Virus record (IMG/VR): IMGVR_UViG_2537561977_000020
Source of the DNA: a virus
Lineage: Duplodnaviria > Heunggongvirae > Uroviricota > Caudoviricetes
Length of the DNA: 41,610 bases
Strand: one strand, 5' to 3'
Part shown: one piece after another, positions 5,337-12,285 of the stretch
Layout: each line of letters opens with the position of its first letter
Position numbering within the stretch: the first letter of the stretch is position 1
Program-made: the position numbers and the translations under genes
Notes under the pieces: generated by a model
What the model saw: only the letters and a program-made list of their open reading frames with translations
The model's database searches: none
What the model was told of the DNA's origin: nothing

Positions 5337-5625
5337 CTGAATCCCACTCTTCAAAAAGCACATTCAATTCCAGTTTCTCTGCCAATGCGTTTTCTGCACG
5401 TGCGCCGGCAGAGTACTCCCACTCTTTGAGCATATAAATCGTATCGGCACAGCGAAGCATTGCGAGGCAGATGTCCATATACTGAGCCTGTGTCAAACCA
5501 TTGGGTAAAGTTGCGGGGTTAAGCACAACGTATCCCTTGTCCGTTAGCCTCTTTGCTGCGGAATGAAAGGCCGGGCGGTTAAATTGTTCGTAACCGCTCA
5601 TAGGCCCGGCAACGTAAACGATCAT
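5326..5625 (-). CDS. DUF4406-like protein (nucleoside deoxyribosyltransferase-like fold)
   Basis: MIVYVAGPMSGYEQFNRPAF...NPA pattern recalled for DUF4406. Confidence 0.45.
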   Translation of the reverse strand: MIVYVAGPMSGYEQFNRPAFHSAAKRLTDKGYVVLNPATLPNGLTQAQYMDICLAMLRCADTIYMLKEWEYSAGARAENALAEKLELNVLFEEWDSDGL

Positions 5626-5837
5626 TCTTCGACCGCCTTACGCTTTTCACGCATATTCTGCATCAGGCAAAAATCAGATCTGCGTTCACTCCATTCCTGA
5701 TTCAGTTCGTGATGTGATTCGCGGTTGGCTTTTGCCCAGGCCTTCGCTGCCCGGTCATATTCGCCGGACTGCTCAAGGCGCAAGGCCTCCCTCGCAGCCC
5801 GGTAATAAAGTGGGCTGTCCCGATATTTAAATGACAT
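5622..5837 (-). CDS. small hypothetical protein, possibly ANR-family-like regulator
   Basis: 71 aa, helical, resembles small prophage ANR proteins from memory; weak. Confidence 0.3.
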   Translation of the reverse strand: MSFKYRDSPLYYRAAREALRLEQSGEYDRAAKAWAKANRESHHELNQEWSERRSDFCLMQNMREKRKAVEE

Positions 5838-5853
5838 AGCTTTCGAGTCCTGT

Positions 5854-5878
5854 AAAAAGCCCCTGACTGAGCAGGGGC
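5854..5878 (-). terminator. intrinsic terminator after antirepressor cassette 1
   Basis: Minus-strand hairpin GCCCCUG-CUCAGU-CAGGGGC then U5; near-identical copy at 10090..10114. Confidence 0.6.
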
Positions 5879-5889
5879 GAATTGAAGGA

Positions 5890-6654
5890 TTAACGGGGTA
5901 ACTCTGGTGGAATATATCTGCCGATGCGGTCTTCTATGGTCGGCAGAATGCACATGCTGTCGTTAAAGCGGTCATGCAGTTTGTAGACCAGTTTCGAATC
6001 CATTTTTTCGAGAGCAGGCATTAACTGCGCTCGCCAGATTTCATTAATACGTCGGAAGTTATGACAGACGGCGCGGAGATTGTTGATGAACATTTCCTTT
6101 TCTGCGTCACTGATTCCGGTCTGTGCTTTCTGAATGCATTTCGTGCTGCCATTCCGGTAGAAGCGTTCCTGGGCAGCGACAGCCTCATCCACGGATGGAT
6201 AACACCCTACGTAAACGCTTTTCTCTCCGTTCCATGCGTAGGCTCTGTACGGGTTGTATTTGCTCTGGTGATGGTAAACCATCTTCGGCAGGCACTCCCT
6301 GTGCGGCGCCAGTATCGTGGAGGACTGCTGGTGCAGTTTGCGTTCGCATTCGATGAAGTATCGGCGTATCTGGCGACCTTTTTCGTTACGCTCGACCATC
6401 GCCAGTTCTTTGGCTGTATCGAGGGTGAGGTGGTAGTCCTTACAAAGAACATTTTTACGCTTTCCAGTTTTGGAAAGCGTTACGATATAATCCTGATTTT
6501 CAACGAATTTATAGTCTGCAATTCGTGATGTAATCCATGCTGCAAACACTTTCCCTACCCCAAGGAATGCGTGCAGATCGCGAGCATTGCAGAGCAGGGT
6601 GATTTCGTTGGCGATAGCGCCGTTGAAAACGGGGATGAGTTGAGCTGCCATCAC
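5890..6654 (-). CDS. antirepressor (AntA-like N-domain + KilA-C-like C-domain)
   Basis: N-terminal IPVFNGAIANEITLLCNARDLHAFLGVGKVFAAWITSRI; C-terminal ~145 aa nearly identical to ORF 10126..10899. Confidence 0.6.
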   Translation of the reverse strand: MMAAQLIPVFNGAIANEITLLCNARDLHAFLGVGKVFAAWITSRIADYKFVENQDYIVTLSKTGKRKNVLCKDYHLTLDTAKELAMVERNEKGRQIRRYFIECERKLHQQSSTILAPHRECLPKMVYHHQSKYNPYRAYAWNGEKSVYVGCYPSVDEAVAAQERFYRNGSTKCIQKAQTGISDAEKEMFINNLRAVCHNFRRINEIWRAQLMPALEKMDSKLVYKLHDRFNDSMCILPTIEDRIGRYIPPELPR

Positions 6655-6941
6655 AGTTACCTCTAACGGTGAAATTCACCGCCACCACTGAGTTGCAAAT
6701 CTCATATGGGTGGCGAACTGACGAGGTTTGCAATACCGGCGTTAGAGGAAACCGGCGCGCCGAAGCGCCCCCGCCAGCCCGCCATAATGCGAACGTGGCA
6801 AAGCTTGCGACAATAAAAAAGACGCTGGCGCGTCTGGTGTCGCCCCTAACAATTCCGGGTTGCAAATCCCGATCTCCATTTGGGAGATTCGGTGAGCATA
6901 AACCGGAAGGGGGTGATGAGTCAATATCGGGGTAGCAGGGC

Positions 6942-7022
6942 GGTCGGGTACTTGAACACCGCAGCAAGTCGGCCCGTATCCTTAGCCTTTCGGCTGTTTT
7001 TCGGTATACGCGCTACCCGACC
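6942..7022 (-). promoter_or_regulatory. structured leader element (long-range stem enclosing GNRA-type hairpin)
   Basis: Inverted repeat GGTCGGGTA (6942-6950) / TACCCGACC (7014-7022) enclosing 63 nt with AGCC-GAAA-GGCU hairpin; homologous element with compensatory changes at 10938..11016. Confidence 0.45.
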
Positions 7023-7106
7023 ATATCTGAAAATGGACATAAAAAATCCGCATGACTGACGGGCGCGGTTTCCGCTTGCTGTGGTGTGTTCAGCACCATG
7101 AAGCGG

Positions 7107-7136
7107 AATATACCTATTGGTCATCGCGGATGTCAA
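7107..7136 (-). promoter_or_regulatory. sigma70-like promoter of antirepressor cassette 1
   Basis: Minus strand TTGACA (7136-7131), 18-bp spacer, TATATT (7112-7107); conserved copy at 11121..11150. Confidence 0.55.
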
Positions 7137-10059
7137 TCTTTCCGGTATCTGTAAGATTCGAATCCTCCGGCGTTTAGTGGAATGCTCGTGGCCCAGTCAG
7201 GAACGGTTGCCAGTAACTGGCTGACATGTTCTGCTGAGTAATCGGGTGAGTCAGGGGCCTCACTTATAATTTCATCGTGTACCGTCAGCACAATGCTGTA
7301 ACCGGCATCTTCGATAAGCGGCATGTTTCCGGCCAGAACGTCGCGGGCGGCCGCCTGGGTGACGTTCTCCACCAGCTTTCCGCCGTAGGTTTTGAGTCGT
7401 TGCCATTTACGCGAATAAGAGTTAACACCCATATAGGTGATATTCCCTTTTTCGATAACCGGAGACGGGTAGCATACAGCGCGTCCGGATGGTAGCTGTA
7501 TGCGCAGCCACGCGCCATCGCGGCGGATTTTAAGATAACCGCAATACAATGTTTTTTGCGGTGTGGCGATTGCAGTGCGGACGGTGCGCTCCAGTTCGTA
7601 CCAGAAATCGCAGGTCGCCGGGTGCGCCCTGCGCCAGAGACGTTTAAGTGAGTCGCAGGCGATAAATACCCGTTCAGAAAGGCCGTAGGTTGACTTACGT
7701 TTAACCGATTCGTAGTACCAGCTTTTCGCCTCGCGGATAACATCGCGGGGAATGTTTGGCAGTGCGGCGTTCGCCAGCTCGTCGAGATCGAGACTGTAAA
7801 CCAGTGCAAAAGTGATGAAGGCCGACACACCACCACCGTACCCGCAGTTGTGAACGATTAAATGTCCTGAGTCGGTTTTAATCGTGAATCTGTTTCGAGG
7901 CCCCGCATGTGCAATGTCGTAAACATCGCTCCAGCTCGTCGATACGTTTTTGCAGGTCTGCGATTTTTCTTCTGTTGCGGTTATTGTCTGCTTTGGAGAC
8001 GAACTGGATATTACCCGGTTCGTAGCCTTTGTTATTGTCGATGCGATCCATTTCCAACTTTGGGTCATTAAACCCTTTGATTTCCCTGACGTGTAGCAAA
8101 AAAGCTCTTTTATCTTCCTGCCATAGCTGACAAACGTAGATCCCCCGACCGCCGTAGTTGTGAAACAACCTGTTGGTGGGTTTATGGCAACGGCTGATTG
8201 CGGCAGACAATCGGTTAAGTAGCCTGCGACGGGTTTCGTCATCTGCAATAGCATCCGCATAGCATAAGAATTTTTTACGATACTCGTTATGCTTTTTCTT
8301 TGCGCAAATGTTACATCGGGTACTTTTTCCTTTAAGGAGATTGCTGATTGTTGCGGTGTGAGGCATTGCACCACATTTGCATTTGACAAGTATCCTTCGG
8401 TCTTTTCCGGGTACTTTTTCCAGTTCTTTGATAACGGTAAGTTCTCCGAAGCAAGTTCCAGGCTTTGGTGAAGCGTATTTTTGTTTAAAGCGATAAGGTT
8501 TGCCAGCTTCCATCCAGTAGGGGTTAGCACCTGGTGATCCGGGGTCATTTTTGCTCCGTCCAGTGATATTAAGGCTTTGTACCCCCTGTAAATCAGTCCT
8601 TCGTGTTTTACCCATTCTTCTCCGTCCCATAACAAATCCGCGCCCGAAATACTAACAAGCGGCTTATAGCCTTTATCGGTGAGCACTAAAGTATCCGGAG
8701 CTATGCAAGCCAATTCCAGCACTTTACCTATCTGGCGCTGGTCTTTGGTGACGCGCTCAACTTCAATTCCGTAAGCTTTTGCATACGCCAGTTTATATAA
8801 GTCCGGACCCGCTCCGGCGTCGTACTCTCTGAATGCATTCAGTTTCCATTCTTCTCCCGCCAGCCATGCCAGCATACGGCCTTCAATGTTCGACAAGTCA
8901 CTTACCACCAGTTTTTACCTGTTGGCGCGATAATGCAGCCACGTAACGCTGAACTGGTTAGTTCCATGATATTGTCAAACAGCAGGTCTGCACATCCGGC
9001 TTTCAGTGCTTCGATGCCTTCGTCTATTTGTTCCTGTTTTAGTGAAGGGCGGGGAAGATTCTGGGGCTGGAATAGCCGTCCGGCCCAGCGCCCGGTACGT
9101 GACGCCCCGCAGAACTGTAGCGTACCGCGTAAGCGCCCGTCGTGGCTTACGCCTTTCATCAGTGCCTTGTATTTACTGGTGCTGGTAGTACTGGCTTGCT
9201 GGCGGATAGCCAGCAGTTCTTTCACGGCAGATGGTAAATCGGGGTCGGCTATACGACGTTCCAGGGTACTGCGTTGCATGTCTGGTAGCTCCACACCGTA
9301 GGATTCAACGATGTGCTTAATCAACGCGTCCCGTTGTGTGGCTGCCTGCACTTCGCCATCAGTCATTTCCTGTGTACGCTTTGCCAGGCGCTTTTGCTCC
9401 TGGTCTACCGCTTCGATCGCAGCGCGCGCGAGTTGAATGTCCATGCAGACGCCCCGGTCGTTGATCTGCTGATCACGATGCCAGAGCGCCAGTTCTGTCC
9501 CCTGATAATTCCACTTCGGCAGACGTTTATAGACTTCGCGCATTGCCTCGATATCCAGCCCGGCGTAAGCAACAAAGCGCCGCCATTCTTCCGGGTGGGT
9601 TTTACTGGTGGCCCGACGCAGTTTGCTGTTTTTCGGGCGTGGCTTACAGAACAGCTGGATCAGCGCTTTACCTTCTTTGTCCTTCGCTTTGTCTTGCGGG
9701 ACGCCGAGTATTTCGCAGAGTTCCCCCAGAGACCCCGGGAGGCCGTGCGCCAGCGCCTGCACCATTGTGTCGCGCCAACGTTCGACTGGCGGTGCCAGTC
9801 GCGGCATTGCATAACGCAGGACGGTGCGGTCGAAGTGAGAGTTATGAAAATAAAGCAGGGTCTCAGGGGCTGCGATTGCTTCGTATAAGCCGTGTGGAAT
9901 ACCACCACCGGCAGTGATATCCCACACGTTTACGGGCCCGTCGTTGATAGCCCATGCGAACAGCATCACTTCAACGCCTTCGGCATACGCATGGGTACCG
10001 TTCGTAATAGGGATTTCGCAATAGGTTTCCAGGTCGCCCCATAGAATGTTTTCAGACAA
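7133..10059 (-). CDS. family A DNA polymerase (3'-5' exo + pol), frame-broken and intein-containing
   Basis: Exo motifs [33 protein letters not shown]; pol motifs [26 protein letters not shown] (motif A), [10 protein letters not shown]|CGYGGG (motif B split), LTVHDEI (motif C). Two track ORFs (8902..10059, 7133..8908) joined by -1 shift at T5 run 8912-8916. TTG start 10059 with GGAGGA upstream. Confidence 0.7.
7847..8707 (-). mobile_element. intein inserted in DNA polymerase motif B
   Basis: Begins Cys after KVLELA (CIAPDTLVL...), block B TPDHQVLT, ends ...HLIVHN followed by +1 Cys (CGYGGG); 287 codons. Confidence 0.6.
7878..8630 (-). CDS. HNH homing endonuclease ORF nested in the intein, different frame from Hint blocks
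   Basis: [12 protein letters not shown]...[28 protein letters not shown] plus Cys-rich N-region (CKCG...RCNIC); recognisable domain from about 8513 (MEAGKPYRF); frame is -1 relative to intein splicing blocks. Confidence 0.55.
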   Translation of the reverse strand: MGRRRMGKTRRTDLQGVQSLNITGRSKNDPGSPGANPYWMEAGKPYRFKQKYASPKPGTCFGELTVIKELEKVPGKDRRILVKCKCGAMPHTATISNLLKGKSTRCNICAKKKHNEYRKKFLCYADAIADDETRRRLLNRLSAAISRCHKPTNRLFHNYGGRGIYVCQLWQEDKRAFLLHVREIKGFNDPKLEMDRIDNNKGYEPGNIQFVSKADNNRNRRKIADLQKRIDELERCLRHCTCGASKQIHD

Positions 10060-10089
10060 GACAGGGTCCTCCGTGGACTAAACGGTGAC

Positions 10090-10114
10090 AAAAAGCCCCT
10101 GGCTGAGCAGGGGC
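10090..10114 (-). terminator. intrinsic terminator after antirepressor cassette 2
   Basis: Minus-strand hairpin GCCCCUG-CUCAGCC-AGGGGC then U5; paralogous to 5854..5878. Confidence 0.6.
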
Positions 10115-10125
10115 GGATTGAATGA

Positions 10126-10899
10126 TTAACGAGGTAAAGTGGGTGGAATATATCTGCCGATGCGGTCTTCTATGGTCGGCAGAGCACACATGCTGTCGCT
10201 GAAGCGATCATGCAACTGGTAAACCAGTTTCGAATCCATTTTTTCGAGGGCAGGCATTAACTGCGAGCGCCAGATTTCATTGATGCGCCGGAAGTTATGA
10301 CAGATGGCGCGGAGATTGTTGATGAACATTTCCTTCTCTGCGTCATTGATTGCTGTCTGCACTTTCTGAATACGCTTTGTGCTGCCGTTCCGGTAAAAGT
10401 CCTTCTGCGCAGCGACAGCCTCATCCACGGTTGGATAGCACCCGACGTAAACGTTCTTCTCTCCGTTCCATGCGTAGGCTCTGTACGGGTTGTATTTGCT
10501 ACTGTGGTGGTAAACCATTTTCGGCAGACACTCCCTGTGCGGCGCCAGTACCGTGGAGGACTGCGGAATAGCGGTTTCTTTCTCTATAAGATCAAGCACC
10601 CAACGGCGAAATTCTTTTGCTACTGGCGTTGTTGCGAACATCGCTACCAGGTGAGCACCGCGTAGAGAGAAAATGCGGTTATTCATTTGGACGGAGCCGG
10701 TTTTCCTAACGACCGTCAATTTGACGGTCGTTGTCATTTCAACTGAAAACTCATCCCGATTACGGTCATAAATACGAGCGACTGAGTCCGTTCGTGAGTA
10801 TTCCAGCGCGGTCGCCAGAGTGGCAGCGGTGAACCAAGATTTGCCGTTATGTTCGATCGTTTCGAGAATGTGGGATTTGAATACGAGTTGGGTACTCAT
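10126..10899 (-). CDS. Bro-N/KilA-C type antirepressor-like protein
   Basis: Probable start MSTQLVFKSH at 10899 (track ORF extends to 11064 through the leader); Bro-N-like N-domain; C-terminal domain paralogous to 5890..6654. Confidence 0.55.
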   Translation of the reverse strand: MSTQLVFKSHILETIEHNGKSWFTAATLATALEYSRTDSVARIYDRNRDEFSVEMTTTVKLTVVRKTGSVQMNNRIFSLRGAHLVAMFATTPVAKEFRRWVLDLIEKETAIPQSSTVLAPHRECLPKMVYHHSSKYNPYRAYAWNGEKNVYVGCYPTVDEAVAAQKDFYRNGSTKRIQKVQTAINDAEKEMFINNLRAICHNFRRINEIWRSQLMPALEKMDSKLVYQLHDRFSDSMCALPTIEDRIGRYIPPTLPR

Positions 10900-10937
10900 G
10901 GTTTTATGCCCTAGTAGATATTTTGAATTTACCCTTT

Positions 10938-11016
10938 TTGAGAGGGTGGTCGGGCGCTCAAAACCGCTACTAGTCGGCGGGCGTATTTCCCTTCGGAAGG
11001 GTGTTGTATTAGCCGC
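10938..11016 (-). promoter_or_regulatory. structured leader element, cassette 2
   Basis: GGTCGGGCG (10938-10946) / CGCCCGACC (11008-11016) enclosing 61 nt with CCCUUCGGAAGGG hairpin; arms covary with cassette 1. Confidence 0.45.
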
Positions 11017-11120
11017 ACGCCCGACCATTGAATTCTCAATATCATGGACATAAAAAATCCGCATGACTGACGGGCGCGGTTTCCGCTAGTAGAAAAGGTG
11101 TTTTGAGCACCATGAAGCGG

Positions 11121-11150
11121 AATATACCCATTGGTTATCGCGGATGTCAA
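11121..11150 (-). promoter_or_regulatory. sigma70-like promoter of antirepressor cassette 2
   Basis: Minus strand TTGACA (11150-11145), 18-bp spacer, TATATT (11126-11121). Confidence 0.55.
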
Positions 11151-11184
11151 TGTATGCTTTTGCAAAAGGTTGTCATCCCCTTTG

Positions 11185-11210
11185 CAAAAACACCCGGCGT
11201 GTAACCGGGC
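11185..11210 (-). terminator. intrinsic terminator after SSB gene
   Basis: Minus-strand hairpin CCCGG-UUACACG-CCGGG then UGUUUUUG. Confidence 0.5.
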
Positions 11211-11225
11211 GTCTATGAAGAAGGG

Positions 11226-11773
11226 TTAAATTAGTGCTTCAGCATCAGCACTTTCGCTGATATCGTCGAAATCGTCAGCGCTTGCCACTCCGCCGCCAGC
11301 GAATGCATCGCCGTCTCGCAGGAACTGGACTCCGCCGAGTGAGGCATTAATGCGTTTACCGAAATTATTGTCCTGTGCCCAGATATCGATAACGGCGTTT
11401 ACATAGCACCCTGCATAGGGACGTCCATCAGCCTGAATTAGTGGCGAACGATCGCGATCAAGAACAGCTGGGCGCGCTTTGTTAGCAGCGTTCAGGAAGA
11501 AATTGCCGGGAAAGCCTTCATACTCTGCTTTTTCATCACCATCATGCAGGCACAGATTGAGTTTTTCTCCAGCTGGTTATAAATGGACTCCAACTTCTCC
11601 CCCCATTTTTCCTTCGCTACCTGCTTCATAGCTTTACGGATTTCTTCCAGTTGTGGGTGTTTGGGAGACATTAAAAATACTGCGGAGAAACGCGGATCGC
11701 CTTCGCCGTTTACAGTTTTAGCTTCAAACAGAGCAGGAAAAGCTAATCTCACGTTATTTAATTTAATCTTCAT
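11226..11773 (-). CDS. DUF2815-type phage single-strand DNA-binding protein, frame-broken
   Basis: N-terminus MKIKLNNVRLAFPALFEAK; continues in -1 frame after T5 run 11562-11566 as LCLHDGDEKAEYEGFPGNFF...ending 11226; track shows only 11492..11773. Confidence 0.6.
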
Positions 11774-12285
11774 TTCAAAACTCCTATAAATTCTATGGAT
11801 TCTTTTTCCGCTGCTTTACGCGCAATTACAGCTTCCGCTACGGAATTAAATAGACCTAAATGTTTTTCTTTGCCGTGCAGCTTTATATAAGCTCTCCACT
11901 TATTACGGTGACGGCAAACCCCAACGGCACCGCTTTTATTATCAGAGCGTAAGGATTGGTTAATGTTATTTTCGGTAGAGGTTACAAGTCGTAGATTAGA
12001 AAGGGTGTAATTGCTCCGATTTTTGTCTATGTGATCTACCTCTAATCCCGAGGGGATACTACCGTTATGCATAACCCAGACGATGCGATGTAACAACATT
12101 TTCCGACCGTTTACACTTACGTGATAATACCCGTCCGGCCTTATATGTCCCGCTTGCTTATCTGCATATTTAGCATTCCAGGACAAATAGTCTCGCCGGG
12201 TTTTAAAATGGGTGAGCGGACGATATTTCCATATTAAAACGCCATTGTGATACCGGAAGCATTCATTTAAATATTCTTGATCCAA
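11770..12285 (-). CDS. HNH homing endonuclease (HNH + AP2-like DNA-binding domain)
   Basis: EVDHIDKNRSNYTLSNLRLVTSTEN and SGAVGVCRHRNKWRAYIKLHGKEKHLGLF. Confidence 0.65.
   Translation of the reverse strand: MDQEYLNECFRYHNGVLIWKYRPLTHFKTRRDYLSWNAKYADKQAGHIRPDGYYHVSVNGRKMLLHRIVWVMHNGSIPSGLEVDHIDKNRSNYTLSNLRLVTSTENNINQSLRSDNKSGAVGVCRHRNKWRAYIKLHGKEKHLGLFNSVAEAVIARKAAEKESIEFIGVLK

Follow-up and report, generated by a model that had tools for sequence, protein, structure and literature searches.

A conserved hairpin and U-run in the leaders of phage antirepressor genes: a candidate attenuator in a c4-like control module

RNA control of the kind considered here is well known from P1 c4, P4 CI, N15 CA and IsrK, and in P22 the sar RNA is an opposite-strand transcript that runs across the ribosome-binding site (RBS) of ant. 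For P4 and N15, RNA-dependent premature termination of transcription in the same operon was reportedly documented by Sabbattini in 1995 and Ravin in 1999. In both P4 seqA-CI-seqC immunity and N15 CA RNA anti-immunity, an RNA pairs with sites flanking its own gene, and IsrK-like elements are the structural equivalent of seqA (PMC3632133). The immI region of P1 and P7 combines c4 with a1/b1 and a2/b2 sites (Citron and Schuster 1990, as summarised in PMC12197685, PMC5320573 and PMC7313666), and C4-like RNAs are cut from longer transcripts (PMC5320573). In Gifsy-1 the IsrK leader terminator is leaky, part of the transcripts stopping there as a short RNA and the rest reading through into the antirepressor operon; the short product affects the read-through mRNA in trans, and the processed RNA STnc1160 is encoded downstream (PMC4825925). 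The founding member of the sRNA-Xcc1 family is an 88-nt integron-borne trans-acting sRNA of Xanthomonas campestris (PMC2996969), and papers that list sRNA-Xcc1 handle it as a Xanthomonas virulence-related sRNA.

Here we follow up a promoter-proximal hairpin and U-run that a first-pass annotation had placed inside the leaders of both antirepressor genes in a 41,610-nt stretch of tailed-phage DNA (IMG/VR record IMGVR_UViG_2537561977_000020; the window, below, is this whole stretch), a placement with which our results agree. With a probability of roughly 0.55, we take the hairpin and U-run to be a leaky intrinsic terminator, or attenuator, that forms the 3' end of a decoy leader of ~60 nt in an antirepressor control module of the c4/CI/IsrK type. 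The original suggestion of attenuation and/or a short RNA is still the most likely reading, with IsrK as its closest analogue studied by experiment (PMC4825925), but the idea that the short RNA is the repressor does not hold, since that RNA would carry copies of the target sites a1 and b1 and so be a decoy or cis-partner.

Two leaders, their RNAs and a neighboring isrK-C4 module

An exact search of the window with the 28-mer CCGCGCCCGTCAGTCATGCGGATTTTTT returned two minus-strand matches, 7041-7068 and 11052-11079, where chance would give 0. The first is exactly where the hairpin and AU6 had been reported; the second had correctly been called identical, but at 11042-11069, 10 nt away from its true position. 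Both copies lie in a 44-nt block that cassettes 1 and 2 share at 100% identity (7033-7076 and 11044-11087). The promoter and first hairpin are 93% identical between cassettes, and the sole variable patch between them and the 44-nt block is 6-9 nt long. From the cassette 1 promoter onward, the minus strand reads TTGACA-18-TATATT (7136-7107) and then ccgcttcAUGGUGCUGAACACACCACAGCAAGCGGAAACCGCGCCCGUCAGUCAUGCGGAUUUUUUAUGUCC. Taking a start ~7 nt past the -10, the hairpin and U-run cover roughly +32 to +59, close to the 35-55 nt from the predicted start given at first pass. The parts of the two cassettes are as follows.

7107-7136, minus strand: cassette 1 promoter, TTGACA-18-TATATT, an 11/12 sigma-70 match; predicted start ~7098-7100
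7083-7097, minus strand: leader hairpin A of cassette 1, GGUG-CUGAACA-CACC, with b1, which copies the second target of the sRNA, as its loop
7075-7081, minus strand: a1 site of cassette 1, CAGCAAG, complement of the sRNA loop CUUGCUG
7072-7075, minus strand: S1a of cassette 1, a conserved GCGG whose first G also closes a1 and which pairs with CCGU of the hairpin loop
7041-7068, minus strand: hairpin and U-run, copy 1, CCGCGCCCGUCAGUCAUGCGG then AU6
7064-7068 with 7048-7052, minus strand: copy 1 stem, CCGCG paired with UGCGG
Between these two strands, minus strand: copy 1 loop, C, then CCGU (S1b, 7059-7062), then CAGUCA; the stem is followed by A and then U6 at 7041-7046
7023-7040, minus strand: spacer from U-run to sRNA in cassette 1, AUGUCCAU...AUAU
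6934-7022, minus strand: sRNA-Xcc1-family RNA of cassette 1, 72.8 bits; closing stem with 3' GCCC tail, a' CUUGCUG at 6962-6968, b' UGUUCAAG at 6951-6958
11121-11150, minus strand: cassette 2 promoter, TTGACA-18-TATATT, an 11/12 sigma-70 match
11083-11111, minus strand: 5' part of the cassette 2 leader, with hairpin A at 11097-11111 (loop CUCAAAA, b1), a1 CUACUAG at 11086-11092 and GCGG at 11083-11086
11052-11079, minus strand: hairpin and U-run, copy 2; stem 11075-11079 with 11059-11063, loop CCGU 11070-11073, U6 11052-11057
10940-11026, minus strand: sRNA-Xcc1-family RNA of cassette 2, 70.3 bits; a' CUAGUAG at 10967-10973, b' UUUUGAG at 10957-10963
10126-10946, minus strand: ant2 (Bro-N, Pfam) with its 5' sites; b2 hairpin 10932-10946 with loop CUCAAAA, a2 CUACUAG 10911-10917 fused to the Shine-Dalgarno (SD) sequence, ATG 10897-10899

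Immediately downstream of each hairpin and U-run sits an sRNA of ~85 nt, and both of these RNAs score above the 53-bit gathering score of Rfam sRNA-Xcc1 (RF02221). On the 5' side of the sRNA, the short spacer holds no separate promoter, and the closing stem is followed by an RCCC tail, two features that hint at a 5' end cut by RNase P from a longer transcript. Relatives keep RYGYCC at the start of the spacer, where, judged by eye, a small hairpin forms. No Rfam family matches the leaders themselves (7033-7100 and 11044-11114) even at E<=1, including isrK (RF01394) and c4-a1b1 (RF03163), and the Xcc1-type RNAs of the window have no C4 (RF01695) match at E<=1. RF02221 belongs to no clan; its architecture, 3' RCCC tail and target logic are the same as in C4 (RF01695), yet it stands outside the C4 clan.

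Some further features surround the starts of these transcripts. In enterobacterial copies, the predicted start falls on an AUG (cAUGGUGCU, window 7097-7099) that would open a leaderless ORF; family-wide, neither this AUG nor any reading frame is conserved. Leader-peptide attenuation was set aside, as length differences in the a1 region are not multiples of three and thus no frame is conserved across the hairpin. Just 5' of the cassette 2 -35, the palindrome TTTTGCAAA(A) occurs in two copies 22 nt apart (window 11159-11188), a pair that looks like an operator and that has no equivalent in cassette 1. RefSeq places two Arc-family DNA-binding genes downstream of ant1.

Between the cassette 1 sRNA and ant1 lies a separate module, with these parts.

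6895-6924, minus strand: promoter-like site, TTGACT-18-TATGCT, ending 7 nt before the isrK match
6815-6888, minus strand: isrK-family leader, 50.9 bits; b1 UUUGCAA at 6860-6866, a1 GUUAGGGG at 6843-6850
6820-6835, minus strand: stem of the canonical isrK terminator, with U6 at 6815-6820, forming the 3' end of the Rfam isrK match
6706-6789, minus strand: C4 antisense RNA, 70.6 bits against a threshold of 45; a' CCUCUAAC at 6741-6748, b' UUGCAAA at 6727-6733
5890-6667, minus strand: ant1 (AntA family, Pfam); a2/SD GUUAGAGG at 6660-6667, ATG 6649-6651, b2 UUUGCAA just upstream at 6693-6699

Its order of parts, namely b1 hairpin, a1, terminator, c4-like RNA, b2 and a2/SD, is that of the module we describe. 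Only 6815-6901 gives an Rfam isrK match and a sub-threshold c4-a1b1 match (29.8 bits), and only 6706-6789 a C4 match. A hairpin at 6821-6834 with U6, first annotated as a second terminator of the cassette 1 leader, does exist, but as the isrK terminator of this separate isrK-C4-ant module; the end of the ~285-nt transcript proposed at the same time likewise belongs to that module, which has its own promoter-like site at 6924-6895.

The sites of the two cassettes differ, cassette 1 having a1 CAGCAAG and a' CUUGCUG with no a2, and cassette 2 having a1 CUACUAG, a' CUAGUAG and a2 CUACUAG. The cassette 1 sRNA is an orphan in that no a2/b2 follows it. A target elsewhere in the window was considered and rejected, as CAGCAAGG occurs once, at chance level and at no linkable RBS. 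Relatives that share the cassette 1 a1 (e.g., L129) run on into a b2 hairpin, an a2/SD and an AntA gene; in the window, similarity to such relatives ends after CCCUGCU, at a junction near 6936, and the isrK-C4-ant1 module comes next. The orphan sRNA could be left over from recombination, or could act in trans against incoming phages with that specificity.

An E. coli O121 prophage is 99.5% identical to the window over 8.4 kb, and its RefSeq annotation lists a Bro-N protein, a DNA polymerase, a 45-aa ORF and a 'phage antirepressor Ant', with no RNA genes. The RefSeq start of the Bro-N CDS is the equivalent of 11029, so that the CDS covers the whole sRNA (window 10899-11029); the conserved a2/SD arrangement points to the ATG at 10897-10899 as the real start of ant2. 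The 45-aa hypothetical ORF lies over the isrK/C4 region (window 6742-6879), and its size and position match those of 'orf45' at the Gifsy-1 isrK locus. A 300-nt direct repeat with 88% identity (5854-6153 and 10090-10389) comprises the 3' parts of the otherwise different antirepressor genes together with their near-identical terminators, GCCCCUGCUCAGYCAGGGGC+U5. The DNA polymerase frame at 7133-10059 is split in the window into ORFs 7133-8908 and 8902-10059, in different frames; its O121 RefSeq homologue is a single 945-aa CDS, and there are 7 gap openings between the two sequences over the 8.4 kb.

Complementary sites and covariation among relatives

Scanning viral contigs with two hairpin-A 15-mers yielded 94 distinct leaders, or 95 with cassette 1. 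A covariance model built from these leaders finds exactly two copies in the window and also matches genomes of Raoultella, Buttiauxella, Vogesella (Betaproteobacteria) and Alphaproteobacteria. The promoter-leader-sRNA module occurs in many Stx-converting and other lambdoid phages and in one Acinetobacter phage, always ahead of antirepressor-type genes; in ten sampled loci, the downstream genes were assigned by Pfam to AntA, Bro-N, Rha, ORF6N/P22_AR_C or KilA-N, with one left without assignment. In 86 of 90 distinct upstream regions, 7-9 nt separate the end of the -10 from hairpin A, and because the promoter keeps this fixed distance we place the hairpin inside the transcript. More divergent second leader copies were seen in several other phage contigs, L028 (14310-14370), L225 (13162-13225), L220 (4472-4536), L154 (1815-1879), L097 (1917-1980) and L077 (7237-7301), and tandem or multiple modules per genome thus seem common.

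Anatomy, a three-way complementarity, covariation and an isrK-C4-like layout can all be read from these alignments. The a1 site is an exact 7-8-nt complement of the hairpin-2 loop a' of its own sRNA in 86 of the 95 loci, where non-cognate pairs average 4.6 nt, and the same heptamer returns 3' of the sRNA as a2, again in 86/95 loci, with an ATG 8-11 nt beyond and its terminal AG fused with GAG/GAC into a Shine-Dalgarno sequence. The second site behaves in the same way: a hairpin A loop of CUCAAAA goes with the sRNA junction UUUUGA (54 loci) and CUGAACA with UGUUCA (40 loci), mixed combinations being absent (0/94), and the loop is repeated as b2 in a hairpin just 3' of the sRNA in 90 of 94 loci. 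When each sRNA was cofolded with its own leader the net gain was -3.8 and -5.8 kcal/mol, with non-cognate pairs at +0.2 or above, and sRNA2 with the ant2 RBS gave -1.5 kcal/mol; cofolding was preferred over duplex-only energies, which ignore intramolecular structure. Taken from sequence, the module follows the a1b1 - c4 - a2b2 logic of P1/P7 and P4 seqA-CI.

In 88% of the 95 distinct leaders, compared with 41% of shuffles, the U-run is directly preceded by a stem of 5 bp or more, and 50 different stem sequences occur. In the model-based alignment, double changes that compensate each other are seen at all five stem pairs (74 cells); covariation scores 0.245, while shuffles give 0.097 (0/500) and slid registers no more than 0.069. 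The hairpin A helix is 99.5% paired across the family, and the U-run is nearly invariant. These patterns identify the 5-bp stem as one maintained by selection. In a few divergent relatives (L146/L221, L034, L035 and Ancylobacter L279), strong canonical terminators, such as CCGCGA-CUGAA-UCGCGG+U and CCCGG-CGAC-CCGGG+U5, replace the hairpin at the same position, a substitution that speaks for selection on a hairpin followed by a U-run. Two alphaproteobacterial relatives have retained the hairpin, next to a degenerate U-run. That the element is a chance hairpin and U6 within a recently duplicated 44-nt block is almost certainly wrong: the window copies are identical and so cannot by themselves show selection, but ~95 distinct homologues can, as their stems come in 50 versions and each of the five pairs has undergone compensatory change.

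The hairpin has a long, conserved loop (C-CCGN-NAG...), and the GCGG immediately 3' of a1 hardly varies. In an alignment not fitted to this helix, GCGG:CCGU is paired in 87% of cells. Its covariation score is 0.110 vs 0.042 (0/500 shuffles), and 10 cells carry double changes where 1.1 +/- 0.9 are expected (0/500 shuffles), which represent few events; independent variants keep the pair as A-U, U-A, U.G or C-G. The connecting loops are compatible with an H-type pseudoknot, with L1 of 3 nt in 77/100 rows, L2 of 1 nt in 99/100 and L3 of 3-6 nt. Probably the 5-bp stem is buttressed by GCGG:CCGU in an H-type pseudoknot topology right before the U-run, which would account for the unusual loop as well as for the low hairpin energy; the alignments do not distinguish this arrangement from a GCGG:CCGU helix and a 5-bp stem that are mutually exclusive. 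Since a1 and GCGG share one base, the G at the end of a1, an sRNA:a1 helix would lie directly against the GCGG:CCGU contact.

Several other pairings were tried for this region and rejected. Hairpin B (GCGG/CCGC), a possible conserved anti-terminator, can form in ~74% of cells, but it shows 0 compensatory changes and does not track the stem when the stem changes. A short alternative hairpin abutting the U-run, CCG-CA/UG-CGG, is marginal (0.150 vs 0.122, 7 double changes) and absent as a conserved feature from the AUCAC/GUGAU and CCACA/UGUGG groups. Pairing of the loop with the 5' strand of the sRNA closing stem, hinted at by cofolding, does not differ between cognate (4.67) and non-cognate (4.61) combinations. 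Nor is AGCGG kept to lengthen pairing with the sRNA CCG-N-CU, which changes to CAG in the Acinetobacter clade; there, the leader change GCGU compensates the loop (GCGU) and not the sRNA.

How the hairpin and U-run may act

In the model that we favor, a conserved sigma-70 promoter starts the RNA at hairpin A, and the leader carries b1 in the hairpin A loop and a locus-specific a1, followed by the stem and U6-8. Transcripts that stop there would become U-tailed RNAs of ~60 nt bearing target mimics, to serve as decoy or activator, as for IsrK. Those that read through would be the precursor of the c4-like RNA, cut by RNase P as for c4, and would also provide the ant mRNA, whose translation the c4-like RNA would block at the RBS. 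With a1 abutting the pseudoknot helix, mature RNA bound to the nascent leader could tune termination in either direction. Termination at the U-run is what we infer from this arrangement, and the strongest external support for leakiness is the IsrK leader terminator, because that one is leaky by experiment (PMC4825925).

By the usual measures, the hairpin would be a weak terminator. A single base separates the stem from U6, and U6-8 is nearly invariant family-wide, as expected of an intrinsic terminator. A stable G+C-rich hairpin with a loop of 3-8 nt and a positive classical score is missing: the hairpin alone has 5 bp (one G-U), an 11-nt loop and a dG of -4.0 kcal/mol, leader fold z-scores are ~0, and a terminator scan makes no call on the hairpin and U-run. 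On the classical terminator score it reaches -47 vs +16 for the isrK-type terminator and +11 for the terminator after ant1, by a formula that cannot score a pseudoknot contribution. The low energy of about -4 kcal/mol, the 11-nt loop, the failed scan and score, and the two degenerate U-runs all count against a leaky terminator.

Nearest-neighbor folding, which is blind to pseudoknots, gives the stem a median probability of 0.20 in the free leader (0.00 and 0.07 for the window copies), a mostly unformed state that is a further point against a terminator, and masking a1 and (A)GCGG raises the predicted value from 0.20 to 0.92. With the same method, the natural upstream sequence competes with the stem more than shuffled sequence does (p ~1e-6). 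We dropped the masking result as proof of sRNA-promoted termination, as the folding model cannot represent the pseudoknot, from which one would expect an opposite or a stacking effect.

A stronger version of the attenuator model, which we regard as possible but rather unlikely, makes the leader an sRNA-responsive pseudoknotted attenuator, in which a trans RNA with a programmable 7-nt address would control whether transcription stops or continues into its own gene and the antirepressor. The stem, too weak alone, would be completed by the 3-4-bp CCGU/GCGG helix that adjoins a1, and when the mature c4-like RNA sat on the nascent a1 its 7-bp helix would either stack on the pseudoknot or compete with it. 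If this were true, the leaders would represent a third, undescribed branch of the c4/CI immunity systems, and one spread widely among temperate phages of Gamma-, Beta- and Alphaproteobacteria, Stx-converting phages included.

A U-run between two hairpins also resembles an Hfq or RNase E site. One possibility, to which we give a similarly limited chance, is a processing or chaperone platform: together with the U-run, the hairpin or pseudoknot would bind Hfq, mark a site for RNase E, or both, in a precursor that is always read through and yields no short primary transcript, and would aid sRNA maturation or pairing. The weak hairpin with its poor terminator scores, the placement of the U-run between two hairpins, the two distant relatives that keep the hairpin with a degenerate U-run, and a loop sequence conserved beyond the needs of a terminator are all in keeping with such a platform, as is the cutting of C4-like RNAs from longer transcripts (PMC5320573). 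It accounts less well for a U-run that directly abuts the stem in nearly all members, for the textbook terminators substituted in several lineages and for the proven terminator at the homologous position of isrK-type leaders (PMC4825925). Should termination not occur at all, the element would remain a conserved structured part of the precursor.

It is quite improbable that the element is an insulator, stopping transcription from upstream genes (in cassette 1, the DNA polymerase gene) and leaving the sRNA and ant to be transcribed from the module's own promoter alone. The polymerase stop codon of cassette 1 overlaps the -35, and no other terminator lies between that gene and the leader, as an insulator would have it. 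However, the element is 3' of the module's own conserved promoter in every member and would stop those transcripts equally, a separate hairpin and T-run can be seen by eye 5' of the cassette 2 promoter, and the adjacency of a1 and the GCGG:CCGU pairing would be left unexplained.

Very improbable, too, is a short RNA that itself acts as the antisense repressor of ant, as in the P22 sar analogy drawn at first pass. Such an RNA would indeed be short, promoter-proximal and U-tailed, but it comes from the same strand as ant, and its a1 and b1 equal a2 and b2, the sequence of the ant RBS sites and not the complement. No opposite-strand promoter-like site was found, all four sites in 5500-12000 being on the minus strand. 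The analogy fails at this point, as the complementary, repressor-type RNA is the downstream ~85-nt sRNA-Xcc1-family RNA, which is P1 c4-like.

Relation to described systems

Antirepressors set the exit from lysogeny in many temperate phages, including Shiga-toxin phages, where this same module precedes ant genes and is unannotated in databases and RefSeq. In the open-access literature, we found no paper containing the leader sequences and none linking sRNA-Xcc1 to c4-type a1/a2 logic, antirepressor genes or a leader attenuator; the EHEC anti-sRNAs AgvB and AsxR and the Pas sRNAs, considered as the same element, are located at other prophage positions. Within that literature three things appear to be new: the sRNA-Xcc1 family with a1b1/a2b2 logic ahead of antirepressor genes, a leader family of its own that is absent from Rfam, and a leader end made of a covarying weak hairpin, possibly a pseudoknot, with a U-run. 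Viewing sRNA-Xcc1 as a c4-like immunity RNA with a decoy leader and attenuator gives a testable model of ant silencing. The 7-nt 'address code' differs between otherwise near-identical cassettes, which could give a prophage two or three non-cross-reacting circuits, and a weak terminator, a pseudoknot and an sRNA docking site would together make a compact natural design.

With P22 sar, the module shares RNA-level control of an antirepressor gene. Unlike sar, everything here is on one strand, and the repressor RNA would be processed from the ant leader. P4 CI and N15 CA are closer, each being a leader-derived, processed RNA that pairs upstream and downstream of its own gene; RNA-dependent termination is documented there, whereas an influence of the sRNA on the leader terminator is hypothetical here. 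Membership in sRNA-Xcc1 itself is straightforward, both window RNAs exceeding the family threshold.

P1 c4, known here from published summaries, is likewise a processed RNA of ~80 nt with a closing stem, two hairpins and two short sites, a' and b', that pair at an RBS and with duplicates 5' of the RNA gene on the same transcript, and in it, too, a few bases in a' set immunity specificity. The correspondence holds in cassette 2 and family-wide, where two sites on the RNA complement RBS sites and a short variable loop carries the specificity. The P1 target is the RBS of the gene ahead of ant (icd), whereas here it is that of ant itself, and the RNA of our module falls in a different Rfam family, outside the C4 clan.

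IsrK-STnc1160-anrP of Salmonella Gifsy-1 has a true member in cassette 1 of the window (6706-6888), from which the leaders described here can be told apart. They have no detectable similarity to the isrK or c4-a1b1 models; where IsrK ends in a canonical 6-bp/4-nt hairpin, they end in a weak stem of 5 bp whose large loop is conserved and has a covarying partner upstream; the downstream RNA is of the sRNA-Xcc1 type rather than the C4 type; and orf45 has no equivalent small ORF between the sRNA and ant2. In functional layout the module is nonetheless IsrK-like and seqA-like, with target copies in a promoter-proximal leader and a hairpin and U-run before the c4-like RNA. Both it and IsrK combine a promoter-proximal leader with a target-mimic hairpin, a single-stranded site and an end formed by a hairpin and U-run.
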